The notes under the pieces: generated by a model | The model's database searches: none | Seen by the model: only the letters and a program-made list of their open reading frames with translations | What the model was told of the DNA's origin: nothing | Assembly (NCBI GenBank): GCA_038227875.1 | Contig: JBBRPR010000088.1 | Span: 1 to 26,992, forward strand | DNA length: 26,992 bases | Origin: Planctomycetota bacterium | GTDB taxonomy: Bacteria > Planctomycetota > SZUA-567 > H5-PLA8 | Direction: 5' to 3' | Program-made: the position numbers and the translations under genes | Shown: one piece after another, positions 5,322 through 24,068 of the stretch | How positions within the stretch are numbered: the stretch's first letter is position 1 | Layout of the letters: the number at the start of each line of letters is the position of its first letter

Positions 5322-5793
5322 GTTTTTGATCTCACGCAAAGCCGCGAAGTCGCAAAGAACGGCGCTGGGTGAGGACGTTTTGATTTCGGCTTGAGCTCAA
5401 ATCACAAGCCCGAGTGCCACCCGTCTCGCCGTTGAGAGGGGTGCGGGAGTCGCGCGGCGCTTACAATTTGAGCCGCCAGTGAGAACTCGCGGACAACCGT
5501 CGCCCCTGTAATCGCTCAGATCGCGTTGTTTCCGAATCATCGTTACCAAACGAACCAGCGTATTCAATGTCTCACCATCCGATCCACCTGTTCGCGTGGG
5601 CGGCACTGGTGGCTAAACAGCCATCCACCAGTGGCACACAACAGCAGTCGAAATTACAAACGCTGCGTCTAACTCGCACCCGTCTCAACGGCGAGACGGG
5701 TGGCACCCTCGTTTGTGATTTGTGCTCAAGCCGAATTCATGACGTCCACCACAAAAGCTGTTCTTTGCGGCTTTGCGTGAGATTAAAAACTCA
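5319..5793. repeat. Long inverted-repeat element (MITE/REPIN-like); arms ~5319-5472 and ~5648-5793, with three REP-like hairpins
   Basis: The left arm tgagtttttgatctcacgcaaagc...ttcggcttgagctcaaatcacaa...gtgccacccgtctcgccgttgagaggggtgcg matches the reverse complement of the right arm; hairpins at 5414-5444, 5603-5637 and 5676-5706. Confidence 0.9.
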
Positions 5794-6606: not shown

Positions 6607-7484
6607 CCACCCAGTATGCTCAGGCGCCGCCGCACGGCGTTCCACATCCACGAACACAGCAGCAGCAGCGCGATCGTCCACGCCGTCTGCAGGATCAGCT
6701 CGCGCTGCAGTTGGTCCGTGGGGTAGCGGCCGAGGTAAATGTTCATCGGCGTGTCGGCCAGGCCTTTGAACGGCAGCAGATTGAAGACGCGCTGCAGCGG
6801 CGCGGGGAAGAACGTCAGCGGCAGCAGCAGCCCGGACATGAACTGCAGCAGCATGAACTTGGCCCAGAGGAAGCCCTGGATTTTCTCGGTGTACGCGGCG
6901 CAGAGTCCGGTCAGAAAATTCACGGCGAAGAAAATATTGAAAGCCAGCACGATGCTGTAAGCGAAAAGCACGCCGCTGAGCGCGCTGGCCGGCGGCTGGA
7001 TGTTGAAGATCCAGAGCGCCAGCGCCAACACCGGCAGCGCCATAAAGAAGATGCGGAAAACGGCTTCACCCACCGCCGAGCCGTAAAATTGCAGAAACAG
7101 CGACGTCGGGCGCATCAGGTCGGTGCTGATTTCGCCCTTGTTGATCCGCGCGGCGAGAATGTTGTCGGAATTGGAAAAGTACGCGCTGCGCACAATCCAG
7201 TTCACGCAGACGTACGTCTGCATTTCGGGGAGCGTCCAGCCCGAGCGTACGACGCCGGGGTTGCTGTTAAAGAGCGCGTCCCACAAATAGTAATTCACCG
7301 CGCAGTACGTGATGTAATTGACGATGCCGATGACGTAGCGCACGCGATGCGCGAGCATGATCGCGAAGCTGGACTTCGCGAAAACCAGCGAGAGCGAGAA
7401 CGTGTTGAGCAGCCGCGCTCCAAAGGTGTGGGGGCGCTCGGCAGGCGTGAAGGACGGAGCATCGATCAGCGCGCCGTTGCCCAC
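6603..7484 (-). CDS. ABC-2 family exporter permease (DUF990-type)
   Basis: INKGEISTDLMRPTS, SGLLLPLTFFP, PMNIYLG, ends LSILGG; about six TMs; GTG start with GGGAG RBS. Confidence 0.9.
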   Translation of the reverse strand: MGNGALIDAPSFTPAERPHTFGARLLNTFSLSLVFAKSSFAIMLAHRVRYVIGIVNYITYCAVNYYLWDALFNSNPGVVRSGWTLPEMQTYVCVNWIVRSAYFSNSDNILAARINKGEISTDLMRPTSLFLQFYGSAVGEAVFRIFFMALPVLALALWIFNIQPPASALSGVLFAYSIVLAFNIFFAVNFLTGLCAAYTEKIQGFLWAKFMLLQFMSGLLLPLTFFPAPLQRVFNLLPFKGLADTPMNIYLGRYPTDQLQRELILQTAWTIALLLLCSWMWNAVRRRLSILGG

Positions 7485-7490
7485 TGGACG

Positions 7491-8498
7491 CTATCTCCCC
7501 GCCGCGTAGATGCGCTGCACAACCTGCTCGATATTGGCTTCTTCGATCGCGATGTCCTGGATGTTCTCGCCGTAGCGGTCGAGCACCGAGCGGATGACTT
7601 CGGCGCGGTGTGGCGCTTCCTTGCTGAGCGTCGCGGTGAGCGTCGCGCCCTTGGTGTCCCAGGCGATGCCCTGCACCGGCAGGCCTTCGGGCGTCCAGCC
7701 AGTTTCCACCGAGCGCGTGAGCGAGAACGTGAGCTGGCCAGTGTCGGTGGCTTTCGCGCGGAGTTCGTCGAGCGTGCCGTCGAAGATGATCTTTCCCTTG
7801 TCGAGAATGATCACGCGCGAACAGAGCTCCTCAATGTCGCGCAGGTCGTGCGTGGTGAGGATCACGGTGACTTTCCGTTCGCGGTTGATCCGTTTCACGA
7901 ACTCGCGGATCGACTGCTTGGCAGCGACGTCGAGCCCGATGGTCGGTTCATCGAGGAACAGGATCGGCGGCCCGTGAATCAGCGAGGCGGCCAGTTCGCA
8001 GCGCATTTTCTGGCCGAGCGAGAGCTTGCGCGCGGGCGTTTTGATGAAGTCGCTGAGCTTCAAGACGTGTTCGAATTCTTCCATGCGCGCGGCGTATTCG
8101 GCCGGCGGCACGTTGTAGATGCGCGCGAGCAAGCGGAGCGATTCGCCGGCGGCCAGATCCCACCAGAGCTGCGAGCGCTGGCCGAAGACCGCGCCGATGT
8201 GTTGGACGTGTTCTTCGCGGTCGATCCACGGCACGCGGCCGTCGACTTTCACGATCCCGGAGGACGGGAACAGGATGCCGCAGAGCGCCTTGATCGTGGT
8301 CGACTTGCCCGCGCCGTTGGCGCCGATGTAGCCGACCATTTCGCCGCGCTGAATTTCAAACGAGACGCCGTCGACGGCGCGGAGCGTTTTGTACTCGCGC
8401 GAAAACAAATCCTTGAACGCCCCGCCAATGCCGGCGCGGCGGTCGTACGTTTTGTATTCCTTCACGAGGTCTTTGACGACAATCAAGGGTGCGGACAT
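7491..8498 (-). CDS. ABC transporter ATP-binding protein (ABC-2/NatA-like)
   Basis: Walker A GANGAGKST, signature LSLGQ, Walker B LFLDEPT, H-loop TTHD. Confidence 0.95.
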   Translation of the reverse strand: MSAPLIVVKDLVKEYKTYDRRAGIGGAFKDLFSREYKTLRAVDGVSFEIQRGEMVGYIGANGAGKSTTIKALCGILFPSSGIVKVDGRVPWIDREEHVQHIGAVFGQRSQLWWDLAAGESLRLLARIYNVPPAEYAARMEEFEHVLKLSDFIKTPARKLSLGQKMRCELAASLIHGPPILFLDEPTIGLDVAAKQSIREFVKRINRERKVTVILTTHDLRDIEELCSRVIILDKGKIIFDGTLDELRAKATDTGQLTFSLTRSVETGWTPEGLPVQGIAWDTKGATLTATLSKEAPHRAEVIRSVLDRYGENIQDIAIEEANIEQVVQRIYAAGR

Positions 8499-8504
8499 GC
8501 GTGT

Positions 8505-8532
8505 AGTTTAGCAAGTGCCCACAGAATGGCGA
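8505..8532 (-). promoter_or_regulatory. Putative extended -10 sigma70 promoter giving a leaderless mRNA for the ABC operon
   Basis: Minus strand TCGCCA-N16-TAAACT with TG at the extended -10 position; ATG follows 6 nt after the -10; no Shine-Dalgarno. Confidence 0.45.
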
Positions 8533-8571
8533 TGTCAGATGGGTCTAGCGGTATCGTGCGAAGTGCCCTTT

Positions 8572-8746
8572 GTAGTCCGGGCGTCTCGCCCGGTCTAACT
8601 TCGGAACAAGCAGGAATGGCAACTTCGTTCGTTGAAGCGCTCTACCGCGAAGCAACACCGTTTGCTTCGCGGTAAAGTAAGCAACGCTCGGAACCTTCCG
8701 GCATTCGGCTCCGGTGTAGTTAGACCGGGCGGGACGCCCGGACTAC
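8572..8746. repeat. GTAG-tagged REP doublet (REPIN-like) with a central hairpin
   Basis: gtagtccgggcgtctcgcccggtctaact (8572-8600) and an inverted copy at 8718-8746 (28/29 identical); central 13-bp perfect stem taccgcgaagcaa/ttgcttcgcggta (8643-8674). Confidence 0.85.
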
Positions 8747-8766
8747 GAACTGCCAACGCCAGACAA

Positions 8767-11592
8767 TCAAACGTGCCAAATCTGCACATCACCATTCTTC
8801 AGAAACAGCGCGTACTCATCCACGCCTTCCGCCGGCAGCACCGCGTACGGTTCTTCGCCCGGTCCGGCGACGCTGCAGGAGATGACGAGAGTTTCGCCTT
8901 CGGTATGATAGACGCGCACTTCCGTCTTCGTCGCGGCGATGAGATCGCCGCCGCGCGTGAAGCCGATCACCGGCGCGAACATGCCCTGCCCGAAGTTGAT
9001 CCTGTTCTGCTTCCCACCCTTCCCCTCCGGCCAAAGGACCACGCCGCCCTCCTCCATCGCGATGGCAATGCGCGTGCGGGTGAACGGGGCGGAGGCGACG
9101 ATGCTGCGGATCGTCCGGTGGAGTTGCGTGACTTCGGATTTGCCGGCGTGGAAGGTGATCAAGCCGGATGCGCCGTCGGAGATGTAGGCGTGATCGTTTC
9201 GAACGGCCATGGGGACGGGAAAAACGGGTTCGTCTTTGGAGCCGACAAAATGTGGAATGTCATGGCTCGCAAACAGCTTGTTGCCCCTACCGAAGACCTC
9301 TAAGTTGCAGTCGATGGCGTCAAAGGCACCGTCTACGCGGAGGATATACGTTACATCGCGTTCATCATACCTGAATGCAACAGTATCGGGAGTTAGCTCG
9401 TCCGGCCTTTCAAAAACGAACTCATTCCACTTACCCCCAATATGCCGATGTTTTTTGTTTAGAATCACGATGTCATGATGTTCATTGTGCGGGGCACAAA
9501 TTGCCAATTCGTCCCCAGAACCTATGACCTCAAATTTCTTTCCTACCTGAGTTTTTCCATTCCAGCTACCCCGTACAATCTTCGTAAGAATGTGATCCTT
9601 CGAACCCCCTCCGATTGCAAGAAATCCATCAGCATAGCTTACGGCCGATGACCACTCGTTGCTTATTTCTTTCAGCGATATCGTCCGCACCAACTTCCGC
9701 GTCACCGGCTTGTTCGACACCTTTAGCGCCGGCTTGTGCGGCTTCGGCGCGGTCTGGCGTTCCTTCTTCAATCGATGCTCGATGTACCGGCCCGCGTCGC
9801 GCGAGAGCAGGCGGTCTTCTGGGGCGAGGTTGGCCACGGCGGTGGTTAGCGCGCGGACGCGGTCGGTGGCTTTGGCCATCAATTGTCCGGCCAACACGCG
9901 CGTGGTGTCGGCGGATTTGGCGCGGAACGCGGCGTCGGGATAGACCAGGCTCTGCCGCGAGCAGATTTCCACCGCCGTCTGCGTCTGCCAGTCGGGAAGT
10001 TTGTGCGCGCGCAAGCCCTGCACGACTTTCAGCGCGGCACCGTGGCGGCCGAGCTTTCCCAGCAGCGCGAACTGCGCGGTCAGGCACTGCTCGGCCTGCG
10101 GCGTGTCCGGCCAACCGGCGCTCAACGCGGCCAGCGCTTCGTCGTGCTCGCCCATCGAGTCGCTTAAAATCCGCGCGGCGCTGACCCGGTCCATCCGCGC
10201 GAGCGCTTCATCCACGGCTTTGCGGTACGCGGCGCGGGCTTCGTCGGGGCGTTCGATCCTGGTGTAGAGCCGCGCGACCTCCAGCCACTGCTTGAGCTCT
10301 TCGCGCAGCGCGATCGCTTCGGTGATTAGCCCGCCTTCTTCCAGGCATTCGGCGGCCAGCGCCTTGTTTTTAATCAGGTCGCGGTAGATCACGGCGGCTT
10401 CGCGGAAATGGCGGCCCTGCTTCAGCGCGTTGGCGGCGGCGTTGTGATCGCCGAGCAGTTCGGAAAAAATATACGCGGCGCGGCGGAAACGCCCGAGCGC
10501 CAGTTCGCGGTTGGCGGCCTTGAGGTACTTCTGCCGCAGCTCCATGCGCATTTTTTCCGACATGCCCCACGGATCGACAGCCTGGCCGCCGCGCAAATTG
10601 TTGAGACTGAAATTGGTTCCGCGCCGGACCAGGCTCGCGCCCGGCGGCGACGCGCCGCGCGGCTGGCCTTCCTTGCCGGCCAGCGGAATCGCGTAGCTCA
10701 AGCCGTTGTCGGGATCTTCGTCGAGCATGCGCGAGAGCCGGTCGAGCTCCTTGTTGCGCGCGTTTTCCAGTTGCTCGCTAAGACGCTGAACGTGCGCGGC
10801 GGCCCATTCTTTGAATGCGTCGAAAAGTCCGCCGCCCGCGCCACCCCCGGAACTTCCAGCACTGCCGCTGGCACCCGCTCCGCCGAAGCCGCCCAGTCCG
10901 CCGGGGATCAGGCTGCCGATTCCCGCGGCGAGGCCGCCGAGCGCGCCGGCGATCGCTCCCGCCGCGCCGAGGCCCGCGATCATCACTCTGCCGGCGAGCG
11001 GGTTGGTTTCTTTGCTGTGTGGCGGCAGCGTCTCGGGCGATTTCGAACCGATGTTGCCGCGGCCGGCCTCCATTAATTCGTCGAGCGAAATGATCACGTC
11101 GGGTTCGACGCTGATAAGCCGGGGATACGGGGAGGCGCCGGGCTTGGCGCGGTCCCAGAGATCGGCGCGGCGCTCGGGAAGTTGCAACAGGTCGGCGACG
11201 GAGATCGCGTCGGCCGAGCGAAAACCGGTGAGTCCCGCGCCCGGATGGACGACGCTGATTTCAAACGCAGCCAGGTCGCTCAATTCCGCGTCGGTCACCG
11301 GCGGATCGAACTGCGCGTTGACCGGCAGGTAGACGCGTCCGGCGACGCAGCCGTAACTTTCCGCGCGCAGCATCTCTCGCGGTTTTGCACAGTCCAGCAG
11401 CACCAGCACACCAGTGGCATCGCGGTTGGAGACGGACGTCGCGAGCACGAACAATTTCGCCTTCGCCAGCGGCACATTCCAGCGCGCGAGTTCTTCGAGC
11501 CAGAGCGCCGGATCGCTACCGCCAATGAACCACGCCGCCGGCGCGTGCATGGCGTGAGGGAGTCGCGTGAGGCGGAGCGGGAGGCGGATCAC
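8767..11592 (-). CDS. MoxR-vWA-beta-propeller ternary system component (bpX3-like N-terminus, TPR-like helices, C-terminal beta-propeller; 941 aa)
   Basis: N-terminal AAWFIGGSDPALWLEELARW and VYLPVNAQFDPPV; LDEDPDNGLSYAIPL; TPR-like RRAAYIFSELLGD...EAAVIY; beta-rich C-terminus; operon context. Confidence 0.75.
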   Translation of the reverse strand: MIRLPLRLTRLPHAMHAPAAWFIGGSDPALWLEELARWNVPLAKAKLFVLATSVSNRDATGVLVLLDCAKPREMLRAESYGCVAGRVYLPVNAQFDPPVTDAELSDLAAFEISVVHPGAGLTGFRSADAISVADLLQLPERRADLWDRAKPGASPYPRLISVEPDVIISLDELMEAGRGNIGSKSPETLPPHSKETNPLAGRVMIAGLGAAGAIAGALGGLAAGIGSLIPGGLGGFGGAGASGSAGSSGGGAGGGLFDAFKEWAAAHVQRLSEQLENARNKELDRLSRMLDEDPDNGLSYAIPLAGKEGQPRGASPPGASLVRRGTNFSLNNLRGGQAVDPWGMSEKMRMELRQKYLKAANRELALGRFRRAAYIFSELLGDHNAAANALKQGRHFREAAVIYRDLIKNKALAAECLEEGGLITEAIALREELKQWLEVARLYTRIERPDEARAAYRKAVDEALARMDRVSAARILSDSMGEHDEALAALSAGWPDTPQAEQCLTAQFALLGKLGRHGAALKVVQGLRAHKLPDWQTQTAVEICSRQSLVYPDAAFRAKSADTTRVLAGQLMAKATDRVRALTTAVANLAPEDRLLSRDAGRYIEHRLKKERQTAPKPHKPALKVSNKPVTRKLVRTISLKEISNEWSSAVSYADGFLAIGGGSKDHILTKIVRGSWNGKTQVGKKFEVIGSGDELAICAPHNEHHDIVILNKKHRHIGGKWNEFVFERPDELTPDTVAFRYDERDVTYILRVDGAFDAIDCNLEVFGRGNKLFASHDIPHFVGSKDEPVFPVPMAVRNDHAYISDGASGLITFHAGKSEVTQLHRTIRSIVASAPFTRTRIAIAMEEGGVVLWPEGKGGKQNRINFGQGMFAPVIGFTRGGDLIAATKTEVRVYHTEGETLVISCSVAGPGEEPYAVLPAEGVDEYALFLKNGDVQIWHV

Positions 11593-14363
11593 TTCGACCT
11601 CCGCAGCAGGCCGCTGATTTTATCGAAGAGATTTTTGGCGGAGACTTTCATGACATTCGCCTGCAGATAGAAATTAATCCCGCATTGTTCGCCATCGGAA
11701 CTCCAGCACGCGACCTCTATATCATCGAGTACGAACGAAATTTCCGGCAGCGATTTATCCCCGCTCTTCAGATGCAACAATCCGCGCGAGTCATGAAACA
11801 CAGTGACGCCATCCGGCAGGCGGGCGATTGTCACCCTGTACCGGGTGTCCGGCGGCCGCGTCGTCGGCGAGAACGCGACCATCCGCGCGGACGGACCCAC
11901 CCACTTCTCAAATGCGAGCCGGTCCTGTGTCGGATTGTGGACCAACCGGTAGACTGTGCCGCTCTTGGCGCCAATCAGCAGTGTGCCGTTGCCGCTAAGC
12001 CCCACGCTCTTCAAGCGCGAGCGCAATGGGGGCGGGTGGTTCATCGCAGCGAGTCGCATATCGAGCCAGAATTCCCCCGGCGATGTGCCGAACACTACCT
12101 TGTTCATGTCCGCGTCGAGCACCGCGTACGAATTGTCCGTCATCTTCACCAGCAGCCGATTGCCGTCGTCGGTCGCGTCCAGCAGCTGTGCGATCATCTT
12201 GCCTTGCAGATCAAACTGCACCGCCTCGCCCTGCAGCGACGGCGTCAGCGCTCCGGTTTTGCTTAACGCCCACGGGCCGATGCCCTTCGTCTCGCGCCGC
12301 GCGAGGATCAGCGCGACGCAGTCTTTCGCCGGATGCTCGATCAGCGCCACGCGGCCACTGGGTGTGCTCAAGGTCAGTTGGTACCAGGTTAGATAGCGCT
12401 TGAAAAATCGCCCGTGAACCCACTTCTCGTGGCGTGAATTCAATTCATACGTCGAAAGCGGATTTGTATTGCCGCCAGATTGACGGCGAGGCTGATAGAC
12501 GTCGATCTGGCGATCATAAATTACAACGAAGAGTCCGTTCTGGAGCAGCACCTCTTGAGGTACTTTGCCTCGACCTTTCAATGGAAGGCAACCTGATATT
12601 GTGGGTCGTGAATCAGCGGACATGGCGTTGTACAGCAGCAAGTTGCCACCCTGCTGAGGGTCAATGACTACATAAACATTCTGTTCGCCATCGACGATAA
12701 TCTTGCGGACCGCGCCTGCCGGCACCTTGTCGCTCAACTGCCGCGCGCCGGTCTTGGAGGACTCGCGGCGCAGTAGCCGGCCGTCACGCGTGACGGTGTA
12801 GAGCGCTCCTTTTTCCGTCATGCGGCAGCGCTTCGGCTCGTACGGATACGGCAGCAGAAACGGGAATTCTTCGAGCGACAGAATCACCGGCAGATTCGGA
12901 TCGATCTTCTTGTCCTTCAGCGGCACGACGCGCGGAGAATCCGAGCGCGGCGCGAAGATCGCTTCGATTTCGAATTTTGCCTCCCGCACCAGCGTGTGAC
13001 CGCTGGGCGTAAAATGGAGCAGACGGAAATTCCCTTCCCGGTCCACGCTCGCCGCGTAGAGATTCAAATCCGGAATCGCCGCGAGCGCCGTTCTGAATTC
13101 CGCGTCGTCCAGAGCGTCGGGATGCGTGATGAGAATCGCGTCGGCCGCGCCGGCGGAATCCGGCCGCGCGTTGACCGCGTTCATGAATTCACGCACGGCC
13201 TCCGCCGGATGCGGTTCCGATTCCAGCGCGCCGAGATGCTCGACCAGCCCCGCGCGCTCGACCAATTCGGCGGACAGGAGCATCGCGCCGCTGGCGCGGT
13301 AGCAGTGGATTTCGCTCTCCGTTTCGGCCGTCGCGATCAGCGCCAGCGCCACCGACGCGGCAAACGCGCGCGGCAGCCCCCACATGCGGATGCCGCTGTC
13401 GATCAGGATTTCGCGGTGCTGCGGCGGCGTGCGCGGCGGCGATTCGCGGCGCAGGTAAAGCGCTTCGTTCAGCGCGACGCGCACAGAGAGCGTCAAATCG
13501 TCGTGCGCCAGTTCGCTGATCAACAAACGGTCCAGGTGCCCGCGGTTGGAAATGTCGGTGAAGCCGCCGAGCGGCAGTTCGTCGCACTGCGTCAGCGTGC
13601 GCGGCACGTGGACGGCCGCGAGCAGATCCAAGGCCAGCCGCGCGAGTCCCGAAAGCTCCGCGTCGTTGTCGCTGCGCAGCGCTTCCAGCAGTTTGCGCGC
13701 GCGGTCGGGCAGCGGCGCCTCGCGTTCGGCGGCCACGGGCGTCTCGTCGAGTCCCGTTTCGTGGCGGAGTTCCAATTCGCCCGTGTTCATCTTGGACGAG
13801 CAGAGCACATCCAAATCGGCCAGCAGCGATTCGCCGCTGTCGAAATCCACTGGCTGCAGCATCTCGCGCGGAATCCCGCGGCGCAGCCCCTGCAGCATCA
13901 TCTCCGCATCCGGCGGACGCACGCGCCGCTCAGCCGATTCGAAAATACTTTCTGCCAGAAAGGCCTTGCCCTGCGGCGTGCGGCGAAGGTCGTGCTTGAG
14001 CAAGTTAACGCCGTCGAGCTCCGCGAGAATTCCGGTGACGCGGCGGCTGACAATCACGTCGATGGAGCGCGCGATCACTGTTCCCGCCGACTTTGTCACC
14101 GGACAGGAGATTTGCGCAATCGCGCCGCGCAGCTCGACATCGTCCTTCCAGCCGTCGCGGCACGCGGCCAGCAGCAGCACGATCGCGCCGAACGGCGGCA
14201 GGCCTTTGGGCGCGAGGCGTTCGATCACGGCGTCGATTTCCTGCGTGAAGGCGATCGTCTTTCCGCCAAACGTGGTGATGGCACTGCCGTCGGCGCTCCA
14301 GCGCCAGAGCGGCTCGCGCGGCGGCGCGAAATAGCGGGCGACCACTTCGTCGGAGACCGTCAC
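11589..14363 (-). CDS. MoxR-vWA-beta-propeller ternary system component (bpX0/bpX1-like, degenerate vWA plus beta-propeller; 924 aa)
   Basis: GLPPFGAIVLLLAA; LPLGGFTDISNRGHLDRLLISELAHDD...RVALNEALYLRRESPP; vWA-like ILIDSGIRMWG; C-terminal DSRGLLHLKSGDKSLPEISFVL; GTGA overlaps on both sides. Confidence 0.8.
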   Translation of the reverse strand: MTVSDEVVARYFAPPREPLWRWSADGSAITTFGGKTIAFTQEIDAVIERLAPKGLPPFGAIVLLLAACRDGWKDDVELRGAIAQISCPVTKSAGTVIARSIDVIVSRRVTGILAELDGVNLLKHDLRRTPQGKAFLAESIFESAERRVRPPDAEMMLQGLRRGIPREMLQPVDFDSGESLLADLDVLCSSKMNTGELELRHETGLDETPVAAEREAPLPDRARKLLEALRSDNDAELSGLARLALDLLAAVHVPRTLTQCDELPLGGFTDISNRGHLDRLLISELAHDDLTLSVRVALNEALYLRRESPPRTPPQHREILIDSGIRMWGLPRAFAASVALALIATAETESEIHCYRASGAMLLSAELVERAGLVEHLGALESEPHPAEAVREFMNAVNARPDSAGAADAILITHPDALDDAEFRTALAAIPDLNLYAASVDREGNFRLLHFTPSGHTLVREAKFEIEAIFAPRSDSPRVVPLKDKKIDPNLPVILSLEEFPFLLPYPYEPKRCRMTEKGALYTVTRDGRLLRRESSKTGARQLSDKVPAGAVRKIIVDGEQNVYVVIDPQQGGNLLLYNAMSADSRPTISGCLPLKGRGKVPQEVLLQNGLFVVIYDRQIDVYQPRRQSGGNTNPLSTYELNSRHEKWVHGRFFKRYLTWYQLTLSTPSGRVALIEHPAKDCVALILARRETKGIGPWALSKTGALTPSLQGEAVQFDLQGKMIAQLLDATDDGNRLLVKMTDNSYAVLDADMNKVVFGTSPGEFWLDMRLAAMNHPPPLRSRLKSVGLSGNGTLLIGAKSGTVYRLVHNPTQDRLAFEKWVGPSARMVAFSPTTRPPDTRYRVTIARLPDGVTVFHDSRGLLHLKSGDKSLPEISFVLDDIEVACWSSDGEQCGINFYLQANVMKVSAKNLFDKISGLLRRSK

Positions 14364-15088
14364 GTCGCGTCGTTCTCCACTGGAGTTGCCGCAAACGACT
14401 GCCGCACCGCGCTACGCGTGGCCGAGACAAACAGCCCGCCGACGATCACGTCCCACTGGCCGTCCTCGCGAAAGAGGGCCAGATCGCCCTCGGAAAGCTG
14501 GAGCAGCGGGCGCAGAATTTCCGGATCAGAAAGCGGATGGAGGGCAAACCCACTGGGCACCGCCAGCCCGCGGTCTTCCACATATTGCACGCCGGCGATG
14601 GCCGGAACCGGGCGTCCCCAGATCACCGCGTGCGACGAGGAGAGCGCGAATTTCAGCGGGCGCAGACGGACCGTCGAAATGGAGAGCGCAAAATCGCGCC
14701 ACGTTTCGCATGTTGCCACGAGCAGGTTTGATTCGCGGATGTTCTCCGTCCGAATCAGGCGCAGCGGAACCTTTTTCGGCAGCGTTCCCGGCAGCGCGCT
14801 CGTCGGCGCGGTGACGGAGATGCCGTTCGATAGCGCGACCCAAGGCCGGGCCGGCAAGCGACCCGTTGGCACGCGCGCGCCGGCGGGAACGATCAAGCCA
14901 TCAGCGGACACCATGAAGAGCTGCGCACCCGGTAGCGCGGCCAGCGCCGCCTGGATCTGTTCGAAAGGCTCCGATCCGCGCAGCCAGACTTGATCCGCGA
15001 CCGTGCAGAATTCCACGGGCCGCAAACGCAGGCTGCTCGCGGCGGCGAGCGAAGTTTCCGGAATCCTCGCGGCCCACAGAGCGTTCAC
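14360..15088 (-). CDS. MoxR-vWA-beta-propeller ternary system component (bpX2-like; 242 aa)
   Basis: GTG at 15088 overlaps the MoxR stop (GTGA); motifs VWLRG, RVPTGRLP, RLRPLKFA, LAVPSGF, ATRSAVR. Confidence 0.7.
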   Translation of the reverse strand: MNALWAARIPETSLAAASSLRLRPVEFCTVADQVWLRGSEPFEQIQAALAALPGAQLFMVSADGLIVPAGARVPTGRLPARPWVALSNGISVTAPTSALPGTLPKKVPLRLIRTENIRESNLLVATCETWRDFALSISTVRLRPLKFALSSSHAVIWGRPVPAIAGVQYVEDRGLAVPSGFALHPLSDPEILRPLLQLSEGDLALFREDGQWDVIVGGLFVSATRSAVRQSFAATPVENDAT

Positions 15089-16263
15089 GCCGCGCCTCCC
15101 GGCTTCTGCGGAGCGGCGGATTCCGTCGCTTTCCACAACGCCTCGATGCGCTTCATCAAAAACGCACGCTGCTCGTCGTTCTTCACCCACTGACAGCGCC
15201 CCGAGAGCACGCTGACGCGGTCCTTCAGGACGGCGCGTTCGGAGGCCTGCAGCTCCTTGTTTTCCAGCTTCGCCGCGATGCCGTCGAGATCGCGCGCAAT
15301 CGCTTCCGGGTCGGGCGCGTCGGCGTGGTGCGCGCGCGGATGGTCGGCCGCGTCGGGCGGTTTGGCTTTCAGGAGCTCATCGACAATCGACGCGAGCACT
15401 TCGCGCTGCTCCAGCCGGTCCCAGATGTAACGGAAGACCCACAGGTCCGAAACGATCGCGCTGCCGCGTCCGCAGAGCAGCGCGCTGGCCGCGACGAGGC
15501 GCTGCATTTTCACGGCGCGCCGGTCGGAGACCTGGATCCCCGCGCGGCGGAGCCGGCCGACCAGATCCACGATCGGCGGACGCACGGCGCTCATGTCGAC
15601 GGTGCTCAAGATCGCCTGCAGTTTCGCGACATCGGCGACTTTCAGCGGCGGCGGGCCGCCGGCATTCCTGCGGCGCTGATCGAGCGCCCAGCCCGCGTCG
15701 AGGACGCTGCCGAGGCGCTCGGGCGGCACGTTTTCGCAGCAGACGCGCATCAGGAAGCGGTCGAAGAGCGCGTTGAGCGCGTCGTCTTCCGGCAGCCGGT
15801 TGCTGGCGCCGACGACCATCAGCGTCGGCAGCGCGCGCGTCTCACGGCCGCGGCGGAAGACGCGTTCGTTCAGCACCATCAGCAGGCTGTTGAGGATGGC
15901 GCTGTTGGCGTTCAACAGTTCGTCGAGAAAGACCAGCGACGCTTCGGGGAGCATGCCTTCGGTGTTGGTGATCAATTCGCCTTCGCGCAGTTTGCGGATG
16001 TCGAAGGGGCCGAAGATTTCATTCGGTTCGGTGAAGCGCGTGAGCAGGTAATCGAAAACATTTCCGTCCAACTTGCGCGCGAGTTCCTGAACCAGCGCGC
16101 TCTTGGCCGTTCCGGGCGGGCCGAGCAGGAACAGGTTCTCACCGCCGACGAGGCAGACGCCCATCAGGTCGACGATTTCATCCTTGCCGACGAAGGCCTG
16201 CTTAATCGGCGCGAGCGCTTCCTGCGTGAGGCGGCGGCCGAGTTCCAGAATTTCATCGGACAT
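15085..16263 (-). CDS. MoxR/RavA-family AAA+ ATPase (bpMoxR-like; 392 aa)
   Basis: Walker A GPPGTAKS, YLLTRFTEPNEIFGP, Walker B VFLDE, ASN sensor, ALFDRF arginine finger, SDRR sensor-2. Confidence 0.95.
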   Translation of the reverse strand: MSDEILELGRRLTQEALAPIKQAFVGKDEIVDLMGVCLVGGENLFLLGPPGTAKSALVQELARKLDGNVFDYLLTRFTEPNEIFGPFDIRKLREGELITNTEGMLPEASLVFLDELLNANSAILNSLLMVLNERVFRRGRETRALPTLMVVGASNRLPEDDALNALFDRFLMRVCCENVPPERLGSVLDAGWALDQRRRNAGGPPPLKVADVAKLQAILSTVDMSAVRPPIVDLVGRLRRAGIQVSDRRAVKMQRLVAASALLCGRGSAIVSDLWVFRYIWDRLEQREVLASIVDELLKAKPPDAADHPRAHHADAPDPEAIARDLDGIAAKLENKELQASERAVLKDRVSVLSGRCQWVKNDEQRAFLMKRIEALWKATESAAPQKPGGAA

Positions 16264-16267
16264 AAAT

Positions 16268-16909
16268 TCAAACCTCCTGAGTCTTTAAATCCGCCGCGAG
16301 CGCCGGACAGAGTTCCGGAAACGCGCCGATGCCTTCGCGCACTGCTTCGATCACGCGCGGATCGTCCAACCGCGAGCGCTCCGCAAATTGAATAATGCGA
16401 TCCGCATAAAGCCGTCGCAGACTGGGATGCGCGATGAACAGGGCGAGTTCCGTCGCCAGCACCGGCGGCAGATTCTTGATGCCCACCGACGAAAGCGGCC
16501 ATGCTTTCGCCAACGCCAGCAGTCCGACGTTGAGCGGATCTTCCTCCGCGGCGCCGCGCGCCAGCGCGAGCAGATCGGGCAGGTAGCGCAGAGAAAGATC
16601 GACGGAATAGCACACCGCTGGCGACGGCTGTTCCGGGCATGGCACCGAAAGCGCCGCGCGCACGGTCTCGGCGCTGACTTCGCGAAAGATCAGAAACTGA
16701 CAGGCCTGGTGCAACAGCGTCGCCGCCCAGAGTGCCGCGTCGGGGCGGAATTCCGGCACGTCCCCGGCGAGTTCCGCGCGAGCGAGCAGATCCATCTCGC
16801 GCAGTTTGGACTCGGCGTGAGCGCGCGCGTCCGGCGTTTTGTCCGGCACAATGGACACGCGAACGCGGCCATTCTCATGCAACGCCGTTAAAAATGCAGG
16901 AAGCGACAT
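16268..16909 (-). CDS. MoxR-vWA-beta-propeller ternary system component (bpX4-like; 213 aa)
   Basis: FLTALHENGRV, AALWAATLLHQACQFL, YSVDLSLRYLPDL, WPLSSVG, LRRLYADRII; ends 4 nt before the MoxR start. Confidence 0.75.
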   Translation of the reverse strand: MSLPAFLTALHENGRVRVSIVPDKTPDARAHAESKLREMDLLARAELAGDVPEFRPDAALWAATLLHQACQFLIFREVSAETVRAALSVPCPEQPSPAVCYSVDLSLRYLPDLLALARGAAEEDPLNVGLLALAKAWPLSSVGIKNLPPVLATELALFIAHPSLRRLYADRIIQFAERSRLDDPRVIEAVREGIGAFPELCPALAADLKTQEV

Positions 16910-17095: not shown

Positions 17096-18550
17096 ATGGT
17101 TCGCGAACCGATCTTTCAACCTGTGGCGGGTGGCTCAGTTGTGGATGATAGAGACGACATCTCGCTGATCGCCGCCGTCTCCACCTACCGCGATCGCGAT
17201 GCGTTTGCGGAACTGTGCGAACGCTTCCGCGAACGCGCTTTCAGCATGGCGCTGCGCATCCTGCGCGACCGCGATCTGGCCGAGGACGCCGTTCAAGAAG
17301 CGCTGCTCTCCCTCTGGCGCAACCCTCAAACGCCCCCTTTAAAAGATGCCTGCGGCTGGATCTTGAGCATCGTGACGGCCAAGAGCATCGACTTGGGACG
17401 CAGCCGCAGCCGGCGCGTAAAGCGAGAGACATCCATGGCGACGAAGCAGAATCACTCCAGCGCATCGGCAGCCGAAGCCCTGGAAGAAAACGAACTGATC
17501 GGTTTGCTGCGAAGCCAGATCGACGCGCTTCCGGAACTGGAGCGCACCTTGCTGGCATGCAGTTACTGCGCCAACATGCCGCAGCGCGAAATCGCCAAGC
17601 TGGTCGGTGTCTCGCAGATGACCGTCTCGAATAAAATTCAGCAGGTGCTGGAACGGCTGCGCCTGAATCTCTCCAAGGCCGGTGTCGCCGCCCCTATCAT
17701 GGTGCCGCTGCTGAGCTCCGAAAAATTATTCGAAGCGATGACCTGCGACAGCGCCTGCCCGACGGGATTGACCGAGCGGCTGCTGGGAAGGCTCGACGCG
17801 CCGCCGATTCACAAGAACGCCGAATCGCTGCGCCGAGCCTCGCCGCTGGGAAAATCCAGCGCGTGGACGTTCGCCGCAGTTGCCGTCGTCGCCGTTGCGG
17901 CGGGCGGAGCGTGGTGGGCCGCGCAACGCGCAAATCCTTCCGCTCCGATCGGCGCGACTCCGTCCTCCGTTCAGGCCATGGTGCAGCCCGGCGGAACCTT
18001 TCGTGGCCACTGGGACTTCAGCAAAGGACCGCCGGCCGATCTGACGACGTTTCAAGGCGCGTGGGAATGGCAGAGCGGCAAACAGCCACCGGTTGCCGGC
18101 ATGAAGGTTACGTCAAAGCTCGACGCAGCTCTGCTGCTGCCCGGAACTGTTCCGGCTTCGCCCATGATGCTGAAGATCAAGTTCTACATCAAGCCCAACG
18201 ACATCGCGCACTTTGGCTGCTACTGGGCGGATGAAAACCATGTGTTCGAAAGCCGATCGTGGAAGCGGTCGATGTCGGTTCCATCGGATCATCCCATTCA
18301 GGGCAGTGGATACCTGATTGGGAAATACATCGTGATGTGCCAGGACGATCACGTCGTCAGCGTCGTTGACTACCCGCGCGAGTATCCGGGAAATCGGATC
18401 TGTCTGACCTTCCAGCATCTCATCGCCATCGAGGTTGACGCGCGCTCTGTCACCCTCGACGAAATTCCGGCCAACTTTCGCGATCCGGAGAAATTGCTCA
18501 AGGACATGGATGGCTCGCCCGTCGCCGGGCATGAATACCTGTTTAAGTAG
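17096..18550 (+). CDS. ECF sigma factor fused to a TM helix and an extracytoplasmic domain (484 aa)
   Basis: sigma2 DLAEDAVQEALLSLW; sigma4 MPQREIAKLVGVSQMTVS; TM AWTFAAVAVVAVAAGGAWWAA; ~185-aa beta-rich C-terminus starting GHWDFSKG. Confidence 0.9.
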   Translation: MVREPIFQPVAGGSVVDDRDDISLIAAVSTYRDRDAFAELCERFRERAFSMALRILRDRDLAEDAVQEALLSLWRNPQTPPLKDACGWILSIVTAKSIDLGRSRSRRVKRETSMATKQNHSSASAAEALEENELIGLLRSQIDALPELERTLLACSYCANMPQREIAKLVGVSQMTVSNKIQQVLERLRLNLSKAGVAAPIMVPLLSSEKLFEAMTCDSACPTGLTERLLGRLDAPPIHKNAESLRRASPLGKSSAWTFAAVAVVAVAAGGAWWAAQRANPSAPIGATPSSVQAMVQPGGTFRGHWDFSKGPPADLTTFQGAWEWQSGKQPPVAGMKVTSKLDAALLLPGTVPASPMMLKIKFYIKPNDIAHFGCYWADENHVFESRSWKRSMSVPSDHPIQGSGYLIGKYIVMCQDDHVVSVVDYPREYPGNRICLTFQHLIAIEVDARSVTLDEIPANFRDPEKLLKDMDGSPVAGHEYLFK

Positions 18551-19846: not shown

Positions 19847-20389
19847 ATGCTCGCGTTGTATCGAACCTCCACGGCGGTCGCCGTCGGCAGCGGCAATGAC
19901 GCCTCCTTTTGCACGCTCTACGATCAGCACGCCCCCGCCGCCATGAGTCTTGCGCTGCGCCTGACCGAAAACCATGCTCTGGCCGAAGACGCCGTTCAGG
20001 AATCGATGTTGCGGGTCTGGCGCGCGCTGCCCTCCTTTCGGCCGGGCAACGTCCGCTCCTGGATCCTGCGCATCGTCGCCCGGGTCTGCTTCCGCCTGAT
20101 GCACGCCCGCAAGCGCGAACGCGCGTATCTCGCTAATCCCGTTTCGCTTCCGCTCTACGCGGCAACGGAAGACTCCAGCGAATGCGCCGAGCGCGACCGG
20201 ATGCTCGCCGCTCTGCGCGGAGCAGTCGCAACACTGCCGCCACTGGACCGCCGCCTGGTCGAATCCCACTTCGCTCTGCGCCAGTCGCAACGCGAGATCA
20301 GCGCTGCCACACGCCTGCCCCAGCAGACCATCTCCTATCGCCTGAAACGCATCTCCGCCTCCCTCCGCACGCGCCTCAGCCACGTCTGA
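19847..20389 (+). CDS. Soluble ECF sigma factor (180 aa)
   Basis: LAEDAVQESMLRVW, RSWILRIV, SQREISAATRLPQQTISYRL; GGGAG RBS. Confidence 0.85.
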   Translation: MLALYRTSTAVAVGSGNDASFCTLYDQHAPAAMSLALRLTENHALAEDAVQESMLRVWRALPSFRPGNVRSWILRIVARVCFRLMHARKRERAYLANPVSLPLYAATEDSSECAERDRMLAALRGAVATLPPLDRRLVESHFALRQSQREISAATRLPQQTISYRLKRISASLRTRLSHV

Positions 20390-21593: not shown

Positions 21594-21694
21594 GGTTAGT
21601 GGGCAGGGGTCAGCAGTCAGGGGTCAGAAGTAGGTGGGCGCAGGGCTGTTGCGCCTAGCGTTTGCGTGGTCGAGGCAGAAGGCAGTTGGCGGTC
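21594..21694 (+). repeat. Degenerate heptamer tandem repeats
   Basis: ggttagt gggcagg ggtcagc agtcagg ggtcaga (21594-21628) and ggcagaa ggcagtt ggcggtc (21674-21694). Confidence 0.5.
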
Positions 21695-21756
21695 ACGGAA
21701 TCGCGGGTTTCACAAGACGCTCGTGTACATTTTTTCTTCAATCTCTGGTCAAAAAC

Positions 21757-22425
21757 ATGAATAACGCCCCACCCCTATCGTCAAACACTCAGGAGCCCGG
21801 TGCGTCGGGTCGGGAAGACGCAGAAGATCCGGGCCTCGTTGAGCGTTCGCTGAAGGGCGACGCGGCGGCGTTCGAGCAGTTGTTCGTGAAGTACCGCCAG
21901 CGTGTGTTTGCGGTGGCGTGGCGCCTGGTCGGCGATGAGGACGCGGCGCTCGATGTGGTTCAGGACGCGTTTGTGCGCGCCTACGAAGAGCTGGAAAAGT
22001 TGCGCGGCGAGACGCGCTTTTTTCCGTGGGTCCGCCGGATCACGGTGAACCTGGCGATCGACAAGCTGCGCGCCATCAAGCGCAGCCGGGAAGTCAGCCT
22101 GTTCGCCACAAGCCAGGAAGACGAAGACGGGCGCGAAGAATTGACTGCGGTGGGGCAGGCGATGCCGGAGCGCGAGCAGGACAACCCGGGCCGGCAGGCC
22201 GAACTCTCCGAATTCTCGTCCGCGCTGACCGACGCGCTGGCGAAGCTCTCCGAAAGCCACCGCGCGGTGTTCATGCTCCATGCCGCCGAAGGCATGAGCT
22301 ACAAGGAAATCGCCGAAGCGCTGGGCTGCAATATCGGCACCGTAATGTCGCGCCTGTTCTACGCTCGAAAACGCCTGCAGGAGCTGCTCGGCGCGCACGT
22401 GAAACACCTGAGTCCGGATGCTTGA
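21757..22425 (+). CDS. RpoE-like ECF sigma factor (222 aa)
   Basis: GDAAAFEQLFVKY, AALDVVQDAFVRAY, FFPWVRRITVN, EGMSYKEIAEALGCNIGTVMSRLFYARKRL. Confidence 0.93.
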   Translation: MNNAPPLSSNTQEPGASGREDAEDPGLVERSLKGDAAAFEQLFVKYRQRVFAVAWRLVGDEDAALDVVQDAFVRAYEELEKLRGETRFFPWVRRITVNLAIDKLRAIKRSREVSLFATSQEDEDGREELTAVGQAMPEREQDNPGRQAELSEFSSALTDALAKLSESHRAVFMLHAAEGMSYKEIAEALGCNIGTVMSRLFYARKRLQELLGAHVKHLSPDA

Positions 22426-23899: not shown

Positions 23900-23945
23900 A
23901 GCAAGCAGTCGCGCAGGTCCGCAGGACATCCAAACGAGTGCAAGT

Positions 23946-24018
23946 GGCCGGGTAGCCCAACGGCAGAGGCAGGGGACTTAAAATCCCTTCAGTGCGGGTT
24001 CGATTCCCGTCCCGGCTA
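23946..24018 (+). tRNA. tRNA-Leu(TAA), short variable loop, CCA not encoded
   Basis: Acceptor ggccggg/cccggct plus discriminator A; D arm gcc..ggc; anticodon stem gggga/tccct with loop ct-TAA-aa; T arm gcggg-ttcgatt-cccgt. Confidence 0.93.
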
Positions 24019-24068
24019 TCGCAATTTTACCTATGATCATAGGAGAATAGTTCCACGTTCGCGTTTTG

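Follow-up and report, generated by a model that had tools for sequence, protein, structure and literature searches.

A low-GC, highly divergent segment in the C-terminal β-propeller of a predicted conflict-system protein from a Planctomycetota bacterium

Introduction

The MoxR-vWA-β-propeller ternary systems were defined by Kaur, Burroughs, Iyer and Aravind (Kaur et al. 2020, eLife, PMC7159879). In the passages of that paper that deal with these systems, a role in biological conflict is only predicted, no effector is recognisable and the trigger is not known, and the system is called enigmatic because it is without a conventional effector. The third component is described there as a protein that starts with a variable globular domain and ends with a propeller, with a membrane segment and TPR in between, and a homotypic association of the 2 propellers of the system was suggested. 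The same passages name the P-loop variant GXXXTAKS of bpMoxR for ternary subsystem 4, and the abstract of the paper reports diversification based on reverse transcriptases in some related conflict systems. Here, we analyze an operon of this kind on a contig of 26,992 nucleotides from a Planctomycetota bacterium (JBBRPR010000088.1, assembly GCA_038227875.1), referred to as the window, and focus on a low-GC patch in the gene for the third component, a protein of 941 amino acids here called P0001. The vWA-type component of 924 amino acids, which is encoded in the same operon, is called P0002.

The window operon resembles the ternary systems, as far as these are described in the passages mentioned above, in its set of genes and in the predicted layout of their products. 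The P-loop of its bpMoxR protein, GPPGTAKS, fits the GXXXTAKS variant, and P0002 has bpX0 and bpX1 with a predicted, loosely propeller-like region. In P0001, a globular domain at the N-terminus and a membrane helix precede a TPR-like solenoid and a propeller at the C-terminal end. Both accessory genes, bpX2 and bpX4, are found in the operon, and the host belongs to the Planctomycetota. Judged from its sequence, the operon represents an ordinary case of a family that has been defined in the literature and in Pfam. An initial annotation, made from the DNA alone, had likened the patch to receptor diversification in an immune system, and the Pfam matches to bpX4, bpMoxR, bpX2, bpX0-bpX1 and bpX3 do place the operon within a family for which a role in biological conflict has been predicted (PMC7159879).

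Results

A synonymous composition anomaly in the P0001 gene

The gene for P0001 (8767..11592, located on the minus strand together with all of its parts described below) runs without interruption as a single open reading frame (ORF). The GC content was 43.3% (104/240) at positions 9361-9600, which represents the minimum for windows of this size anywhere on the contig of 26,992 nt (mean 0.616, standard deviation (sd) 0.054), versus 72.5% (87/120) at positions 10021-10140 of the same gene. A TAA at 9301-9303 on the plus strand corresponds to an in-frame leucine codon, TTA (codon 764), on the coding strand. The initial annotation had described an in-frame low-GC cassette at 9240-9680 on the basis of these 3 hand counts, all of which were exact; the frame is indeed open throughout, and the limits are near those fitted below. 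The sole other stretch of the contig with a GC content near that of the patch was observed at about 2011-2300 (0.44 to 0.45 in 240-nt windows), upstream of genes for MacB/HlyD-type transporters.

The fall in GC was found mainly at the third codon positions. In a change-point fit, the GC content at third codon positions (GC3) was 0.42 over codons 641 to 749 (9346..9672), here called the core, and intermediate, 0.65, over codons 750 to 801 (9190..9345), here called the shoulder, while the remainder of the gene showed values of about 0.81 to 0.83. The edge on the 5′ side, in the direction of the gene, is sharp and located near 9672-9700. None of 2,000 shuffles of the third positions of the gene gave a 110-codon window with a value as low. 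We also calculated the GC3 expected from the amino acids of the segment itself and the codon usage of the other genes in the window. For the core, the observed value of 0.422 compared with an expectation of 0.752 (sd 0.038; z −8.7), and none of 20,000 simulations was as low, which rejects the amino acid composition as a cause of the dip; the corresponding z value for the shoulder was −2.2. At four-fold degenerate sites, the GC content was 0.36 in the core versus 0.88 elsewhere in the gene. Taken together, the amino acid-matched GC3, the four-fold sites and the shuffles show that the composition anomaly in P0001 is real, strong and synonymous.

To place the dip in the context of the family, 185,579 species genomes were scanned, which yielded 196 confirmed relatives of P0001, and the best 80 of these 196 were kept as loci (L numbers). 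The GC3 comparison of the patch included 78 of the 80 loci, with L019 and L036 left out since they lack the region. The difference in GC3 between the patch and the N-terminal part of the gene averaged −0.003 (sd 0.06, minimum −0.18) in these 78 relatives, versus about −0.39 in the window, and a low GC3 at this position throughout the family was thereby rejected. In a scan for the minimum of each gene, several loci had deeper z values at query positions 1 to 28, which we regard as artefacts of ORFs defined from stop to stop, with upstream sequence included.

Divergence of blades 1 to 4 on the window branch

The core covers blades 1 and 2 and most of blade 3 of the predicted propeller, and the shoulder extends over the end of blade 3 and the first half of blade 4, which bears out the suggestion in the initial annotation that several blades were affected. 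A protein search with P0001 gave 94 matches at E ≤ 0.001, the entry of the window itself included, and 91 of the 94 carried PF19919. Most of the named matches come from metagenome-assembled genomes of Planctomycetota, and the nearest relatives are P0004, P0005 and P0006, with sequence identities of 56%, 55% and 43%, respectively.

The identity to P0004 and P0005 differed strongly between the parts of the protein, with values of 0.56 to 0.58 for the bpX3 domain, 0.67 to 0.68 for the TPR part and 0.60 to 0.83 for blades 5 to 7, versus only 0.17 to 0.39 for blades 1 to 4 and about 0.3 for the shoulder. A divergent core between conserved flanks, as proposed from the composition alone, was thus recovered in the alignments (0.17 to 0.39 in blades 1 to 4 versus 0.56 to 0.83 elsewhere). 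P0004 and P0005 were 0.50 to 0.56 identical to each other in blades 1 to 4. Across the family, the mean pairwise identity was also lowest in these blades, 0.18 to 0.28, versus 0.44 in the TPR part and 0.36 in bpX3.

A three-taxon test based on p-distances between the window protein, P0004 and P0005 gave branches of near-equal length outside the zone (ratios of 1.1 to 1.3). Over codons 641 to 749, the window branch was 0.52, versus 0.23 and 0.22 for the 2 sisters. The excess divergence is confined to the window branch, starts at amino acids 631 to 641, where GC3 falls, and fades near amino acid 830. A motif specific to the clade, PD..P.DT..F.YDE, has been kept inside the AT-rich core. We conclude that the window carries an extreme allele of blades 1 to 4, with codons that mismatch the usage of the host.

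Turnover of blades 1 to 4 in other loci

To study the zone (amino acids 641 to 801) in other members of the family, we compared 10 close pairs of loci. The zone was usually somewhat less conserved than the TPR part, with typical identities of 0.57 to 0.80 versus 0.78 to 0.90. The ratio of nonsynonymous to synonymous divergence (dN/dS) in the zone was 0.07 to 0.26 in the 8 of 10 pairs with an estimable dS, while dS was saturated in the remaining 2, L018/L030 and L001/L009. These ratios indicate purifying selection, and a signal of positive selection on average was not seen in the 8 pairs.

The pair of L018 and L030 stood out and forms a trio with L024; the 3 represent Planctomycetaceae genomes with operons that are 75% to 83% identical at the nucleotide level in the conserved flanks. 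Between L018 and L030, the amino acid identity is 87% in the TPR part and falls to 30% in the zone, and the 3 proteins differ mutually by 53% to 80% across query positions of about 600 to 860. At the nucleotide level, the identity of the L018/L030 pair changes from about 0.75 to about 0.48 near query position 603 and returns to 0.79 to 0.89 near position 872, and the last 60 residues are again 90% to 97% identical, while the L024 contig ends before. The GC3 of the zone was 0.45 to 0.57 in L018 and 0.47 to 0.66 in L030, with mostly 0.6 to 0.85 in the flanks. For 2 segments of L018, 9832-10647 (blades of the third component) and 7098-7675 (vWA component), a nucleotide match to L030 and L024 was undetectable and GC3 was depressed. 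The paths between the 3 sequences were 4 to 14 times longer in the zone than in the TPR part, versus about 2 times in the family, and the 3 sequences stayed mutual nearest rows. The mosaic of conserved flanks and a divergent core with low GC3 is thus repeated in an independent set of genomes.

The opposite pattern was seen in L003 and L040, where the zone (query positions 621 to 820) is more alike than the flanks, with amino acid identities of 0.91 to 1.0. The identity at third codon positions was 0.54 to 0.83 in windows of the zone, with a peak of 0.71 to 0.83 over positions 701 to 820, and 0.38 to 0.70 in all flank windows but one. The GC3 of L040 is slightly raised in the shared zone. These values hint at a recent exchange of the segment between lineages.

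Excess divergence in the zone was accompanied by a lower GC3 across 39 loci (Spearman −0.50, nominal p 0.0013). When reciprocal pairs were counted once, the coefficient was −0.46 (17 pairs, p 0.065), and without L018/L030 it was −0.35 (p 0.19); we treat the correlation as a hint only. The abrupt turnover of blades 1 to 4 between conserved anchors, in at least 2 clades, is the robust result of these sequence comparisons.

Predicted fold of P0001

The structure of P0001 was predicted with AlphaFold2 (AF2) from an alignment of 38 rows, in which the query was joined by 37 of the 93 other matches, chosen for near-full coverage. The mean predicted local distance difference test (pLDDT) score was 83. 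The Pfam match to bpX3 (PF19919, E 5e-38) spans amino acids 5 to 176, and the N-terminal globular domain (amino acids 1 to 176; 11065..11592; GC3 0.79) was modelled as a mixed α/β structure with a pLDDT of about 90. A membrane-spanning helix is predicted at amino acids 198 to 228 (10909..11001), where the AF2 helix coincides with the top 19-residue hydropathy windows, which begin at amino acids 203 to 211. This helix is followed by a linker rich in glycine, alanine and serine that was modelled with low confidence (pLDDT below 50 at amino acids 224 to 255). The next part is a TPR-like α-solenoid (amino acids 346 to 614; 9751..10557; GC3 0.83), a conserved scaffold built from helix pairs, with a pLDDT of 92 to 98 in all blocks of 10 residues but one. 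Support for the solenoid in the sequence consisted of a weak Pfam match to TPR_8, below the cut-off, and weak profile matches to TPR proteins in the PDB.

The C-terminal part was predicted to form a seven-bladed β-propeller (amino acids 633 to 941; 8770..9696), with 28 strands over amino acids 633 to 940, in agreement with the location of the patch that had been given in the initial annotation. We grouped the strands in the AF2 list into blades ourselves, which gave the limits 633-676, 681-722, 725-767, 773-815, 818-854, 863-896 and 903-940 for blades 1 to 7. Blades 5 to 7 (amino acids 816 to 941; 8770..9147; GC3 0.69 to 0.88) constitute the conserved C-terminal anchor. A Foldseek search against the PDB matched the propeller to WD40-type propellers with 7 blades at template modelling (TM) scores of 0.55 to 0.69. 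These included the WD40 domain of TLE1 (1gxr_B, TMt 0.62), RACK1 (6zxf_g, 0.67), virginiamycin B lyase (2z2p_A, 0.69) and a prokaryotic WD40 protein (5yzv_D, 0.66), and Raptor was matched for the layout of a solenoid plus a propeller. Sequence searches of the PDB with the propeller gave no significant match, and no family was recovered in Pfam scans of the patch alone or of blades 5 to 7 alone. The best score in the ESM Atlas, 0.82, was to propeller-like clusters and is a lead only.

The operon, P0002 and the surrounding contig

The operon is contiguous on the minus strand (8767-16909) in the order bpX4, bpMoxR, bpX2, P0002 and P0001. The first gene encodes the accessory protein bpX4 (16268..16909; PF19920, E 8.5e-52) and is followed by the gene for the bpMoxR AAA+ ATPase (15085..16263; PF20030, E 1.7e-97), with GPPGTAKS as its Walker A motif, and the gene for the accessory protein bpX2 (14360..15190; PF19918, E 2e-46 over amino acids 42 to 264). 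The listed bpX2 ORF, with a GTG start, overlaps the gene for bpMoxR over 106 nt, and the lowest GC3 of this ORF, 0.55, is that of its first 40 codons. Because of this overlap and the start of the Pfam match at amino acid 42, the true start of bpX2 is probably located further downstream. A PADLOC search with the 5 operon proteins gave no significant match to a defence family; 3 had no match and 2 had weak matches (E 0.004 to 0.009) to unrelated models.

P0002 (11589..14363) contains matches to bpX0 (E 3.4e-16) and bpX1 (E 4.5e-12), an α/β core and a β-rich, propeller-like region. The AF2 model (mean pLDDT 81.5) has N-terminal helices, an α/β core at amino acids 316 to 463 and strands over 502 to 888, for which the propellers found by Foldseek, BamB and WIPI among them, indicated a loose relation only, with low TM scores of 0.3 to 0.46. 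A homolog of at least 450 amino acids is encoded on the same strand in 64 of the 80 related loci. We identified a second synonymous dip at codons 556 to 660 (12384..12698, minus strand), with a GC3 of 0.52 versus 0.805 expected (z −7.8), and a weaker dip in the last 64 codons (861 to 924; 11592..11783, minus strand; GC3 0.64, z −3.1). The GC3 difference at codons 556 to 660 averaged −0.022 in the 64 relatives (sd 0.052, minimum −0.22). The region is rich in phenylalanine, tyrosine, methionine, isoleucine, asparagine and lysine, as in the relatives.

The most divergent stretch of P0002 relative to P0192 was located at amino acids 741 to 840 (identity 0.29 to 0.36), where GC3 is normal. L018 and L030 differ most at P0002 positions 681 to 820, where GC3 in L030 is down to 0.38 to 0.46. 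The dips in the genes for P0001 and P0002 were uncorrelated across 62 loci (r 0.04), which rejects a coupling of the 2 dips throughout the family. A complex prediction for P0001 (amino acids 625 to 941) and P0002 (amino acids 500 to 924) had a score of 0.00, which speaks neither for nor against binding.

Several other features were noted in the vicinity. The gap between the stop codon of P0001 and the ABC transporter genes holds an inverted repeat of 32 nt (8569-8600 / 8718-8749; 94% complementary), each arm of which contains a GC-rich hairpin, and another with arms of 127 nt (5343-5469 / 5651-5777; 78%) is located upstream of the last gene of the transporter; both may be elements of the repetitive extragenic palindromic (REP) kind or terminators. 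Adjoining the operon are 3 genes for sigma factors of the sigma-70/extracytoplasmic function (ECF) type within 5.5 kb (17096-18550, 19847-20389 and 21634-22425), which have a conserved segment of 53 nt in common (75% and 60% identity). The first of these sigma factors has a C-terminal extension of about 300 amino acids, for which the family was not assigned. Towards the right end of the contig, a gene for tRNA-Leu(TAA) (23945-24020) is separated by 150 nt from a following ORF (24173-25660) with a weak match to phage integrases (E 4.4e-4, below the Pfam cut-off), and this end of the contig may represent an integration site.

Origin of the patch

The origin that we prefer for the patch in P0001, to which we give an even chance, is the replacement of an allele by recombination. 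The solenoid on one side and blades 5 to 7 on the other would serve as a conserved scaffold, and blades 1 to 4 would form a surface that diversifies and recognises a ligand or a partner. The lineage of the window would carry an allele of blades 1 to 4 with a history of its own, several-fold more diverged than those of its sisters, acquired through homologous recombination with the conserved flanks as anchors. We infer both the event and its donor, an AT-richer allele that would come from an unsampled member of this subclade or of the mobile gene pool of that subclade.

Several results weigh against this reading, the most direct of which come from the phylogenies. In a maximum likelihood tree of amino acids 641 to 801 (LG+C20), the window protein clustered with P0004, P0005 and P0006 (support 99/92), with an end branch of 1.52 versus 0.44, 0.47 and 1.14 for the other 3, the first 2 values being those of its sisters. 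A tree restricted to amino acids 641 to 726 gave the same placement (92/92) and an end branch of 2.43 for the window, which had end branches of 0.23 to 0.24 in trees of the flanking parts. In the tree of amino acids 822 to 941, it was located in a starred clade of 4 rows, with P0005, P0004 and P0006 as the nearest by path and an end branch of 0.24. The approximately unbiased (AU) test for the patch did not reject a clade of the window, P0004 and P0005 (p 0.595). Separate trees of the patch and the flanks thus gave no sign of incongruence at the subclade level. Since the patch trees keep the window in its own subclade of 4 members, an import from a distant lineage of the family is excluded, and any donor has to be closely related and yet much richer in AT; by amino acid composition, the known members of the subclade do not look AT-rich. 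The congruence of the patch trees leaves recombination unproven. The edge of the patch on the 3′ side is also gradual, extending down to about 9190. Furthermore, the dip in P0002 shows no excess amino acid divergence on the window branch (0.23 versus 0.23 for P0192), which is not predicted by a simple import; this dip counts against a single-import story in its simple form.

Nor was a donor recovered in the searches. A HMMER search with amino acids 631 to 821 against 1.84 billion representatives gave 95 proteins at E ≤ 0.001, among which the only full-length match was the protein of the window itself. The listed best stretches of the other 94 were all within amino acids 725 to 821 and belonged to long proteins with multiple repeats, which we read as a generic similarity between blades. 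A word search with amino acids 636 to 805 against 5.8 billion clusters produced 151 candidates and returned only the window's own protein. A tblastn search with the patch against the window and the 80 loci identified no second copy and no good match, only weak matches (E ≥ 0.004) to the first 40 residues or so. A template repeat of the patch was not found anywhere in the 27-kb window, and a Pfam scan of 24 ORFs of the window, not the full set, revealed no reverse transcriptase domain; a donor within the window, in the form of a diversity-generating retroelement or a silent cassette, was accordingly rejected. Tandem Repeats Finder returned 0 rows for positions 8700-9800, and no family of direct repeats was seen in 8767-9750. 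A scan for promoters and terminators in 8400-9900 found sites no more frequently than in shuffled sequences. The patch DNA had no match among plasmids. The P0001 protein had 2 distant homologs (33% identity) on large, non-mobilizable Bacteroidota plasmids, from Hymenobacter yonginensis (NZ_CP115397.1, 245 kb) and Chondrinema litorale (NZ_CP111047.1, 310 kb), so the family is not purely chromosomal.

Divergence in place, which we consider possible but unlikely, would account for the patch without foreign DNA. Blades 1 to 4 would have diverged rapidly under recurrent selection for change, with linked AT-biased mutations fixed on the way, and the weak forces that maintain GC3, such as codon selection and GC-biased conversion, would be ineffective in a segment undergoing a sweep or too diverged for recombination. 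This scenario agrees with the long branch in trees that are otherwise congruent with the flanks, with the failure of all searches to find a donor and with the survival of the PD..P.DT..F.YDE motif in the AT-rich core. It is likewise consistent with L018, L030 and L024, which stay mutual nearest rows in spite of their long paths and depressed GC3, and with the relation between zone divergence and GC3 across the 39 loci, but this relation weakened with the 17 unique pairs and without L018/L030. A fall of 0.5 in the GC content of four-fold sites over about 110 codons would moreover require near-saturating synonymous change in the patch alone. At these sites, the gain of A (+0.27) exceeds the loss of G (−0.17), so a simple decay by transitions is insufficient, and the fast-diverging pairs L077/L080 and L007/L010 show no dip (their GC3 differs by +0.01 to +0.06). 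That linked selection would act on codon usage in this way is a matter of theory, which we count as a weak point of the in-place scenario.

The remaining explanations fare worse. We consider it very improbable that the patch is an assembly chimera, in which the homolog of a co-occurring, AT-richer organism was joined at shared k-mers. Hypervariable regions are known trouble spots for assemblers, the P0001 entry is known from a single contig, that of the window, and its closest relatives come from metagenomes. However, a chimera would need 2 in-frame, colinear joins across very different codon usage, and one edge is a gradient over about 50 codons rather than a step; the same mosaic occurs in the 3 independently assembled genomes of L018, L030 and L024, and a second dip is located 2.7 kb away, in the next gene. 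A somewhat smaller chance still is given to programmed slow translation, whereby rare AT-ending codons would give the helical domain time to fold while the propeller has yet to leave the ribosome. The positions fit, as the dip in P0001 begins 27 codons past the last solenoid helix (amino acid 614) and that in P0002 about 90 codons past the last strand of the α/β core (amino acid 463), and AT-ending codons are rare in this genome. The dips are, however, not conserved in the 78 and 64 relatives and not correlated with each other, the excess amino acid divergence is left unexplained, and to our knowledge pause clusters are far shorter than runs of about 105 to 110 codons. Hypermutation of the propeller by a diversity-generating retroelement or another local mutator we regard as the least probable of all. 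The change is localized and is seen at every codon position, but the tract of about 330 to 480 nt is longer than typical variable regions. The precedent of reverse transcriptases in some related conflict systems, as reported in the abstract of the paper cited above (Kaur et al. 2020), is set against the lack of a template repeat in the 27-kb window and of a reverse transcriptase in the 24 ORFs scanned.

In summary, the view in the initial annotation that the blades were either swapped by recombination or are hypervariable was upheld in part. It is backed by the divergent core, by the position of the patch in the least conserved zone of the family and by the mosaic in L018, L030 and L024, and it is countered by the lack of a donor or second copy, the congruent trees and the purifying dN/dS values.

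Discussion

By analogy with other systems in which propellers act in recognition, we infer a recognition or sensor role for blades 1 to 4, and the patch probably marks the part of P0001 that sets what the system recognises. A more far-reaching model, which is speculative and rather improbable, would join blades 1 to 4 of P0001 and the variable blades of P0002 in a recognition module of 2 parts. The module would be drawn from a pool of very old alleles restricted to clades, maintained as trans-specific polymorphism and exchanged between genomes by recombination in the conserved flanks, with AT-rich codons as the mark of a recent introgression. The pair of propellers, and not the N-terminal domain, would then set the response of a membrane-associated switch that has no effector. 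The hints in this direction are that both genes carry divergent segments in L018 and L030 and that the codon anomaly is seen in both genes of the window.

The segment of about 180 to 200 residues that makes up blades 1 to 4 is discrete and thereby offers a testable candidate for the specificity determinant, and the turnover of these blades shows where natural chimeras have been tolerated. A dip in synonymous composition inside a gene may flag a variable module, and scans of other predicted conflict systems could make use of this signal. Should the dip instead prove to be a by-product of rapid adaptation in place, it would provide a clean bacterial case in which codon bias is lost locally under linked selection.

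Mosaic genes with swapped specificity segments are well known from the target-recognition domains of the HsdS subunits of type I restriction systems, the genes for penicillin-binding proteins and the low-GC O-antigen loci. P0001 is similar to these in its conserved flanks, its highly divergent core and a local composition that is unlike that of the host genome. It differs in that donors and multiple alleles have been documented for the mosaic genes, whereas neither a donor nor an alternative allele was seen for the patch in P0001, which falls within its own subclade.

Another comparison can be made with immune proteins of the STAND/NLR type, such as the fungal HET-E type, which have hypervariable WD40 or TPR repeats as sensors. 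The likeness lies in a propeller or solenoid recognition domain that would diversify beside a conserved signalling scaffold. These proteins vary by recombining highly similar tandem repeats, whereas the propeller DNA in the window has no tandem or direct repeats, and the window system is without a STAND NTPase. In the parts of a study that concern predicted conflict and immune proteins, arrays of propellers and TPRs were proposed to recognise molecules of invaders, and recombination was proposed as a source of diversity in the Branchiostoma TRADD-N WD40 proteins (PMC8195603).

A MoxR and vWA pair coupled to a β-propeller protein has also been described in outline for the Esr threat-sensing pathway of oral Actinomycetota, in which the proposed sensor is a propeller that is diverse in sequence (bioRxiv 10.64898/2026.09.08.750141). 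The comparison is one of descriptions. EsrA, a filament that is secreted to the surface, carries its WD40 domain at the N-terminus and has Ig-like repeats, and signalling in the pathway relies on an FHA protein and a pair of kinase and phosphatase. The window contains none of these parts specific to Esr.

A literature search by Pfam names gave no result for bpMoxR, PF19919 or PF20030, and the matches listed for bpX3 and bpX0 were unrelated. The passages on propellers in the founding paper of the ternary systems contain no description of a variable half-propeller, of episodic replacement or of a codon anomaly, while its supplementary data, outside the scope of this comparison, may bear on the matter. 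With respect to the account in these passages, in which the N-terminal domain of the third component is the variable one (PMC7159879), the family in the window differs in that its least conserved part is blades 1 to 4 of the C-terminal propeller, and the propeller of the window itself differs in combining an episodic, replacement-like divergence with a codon anomaly.

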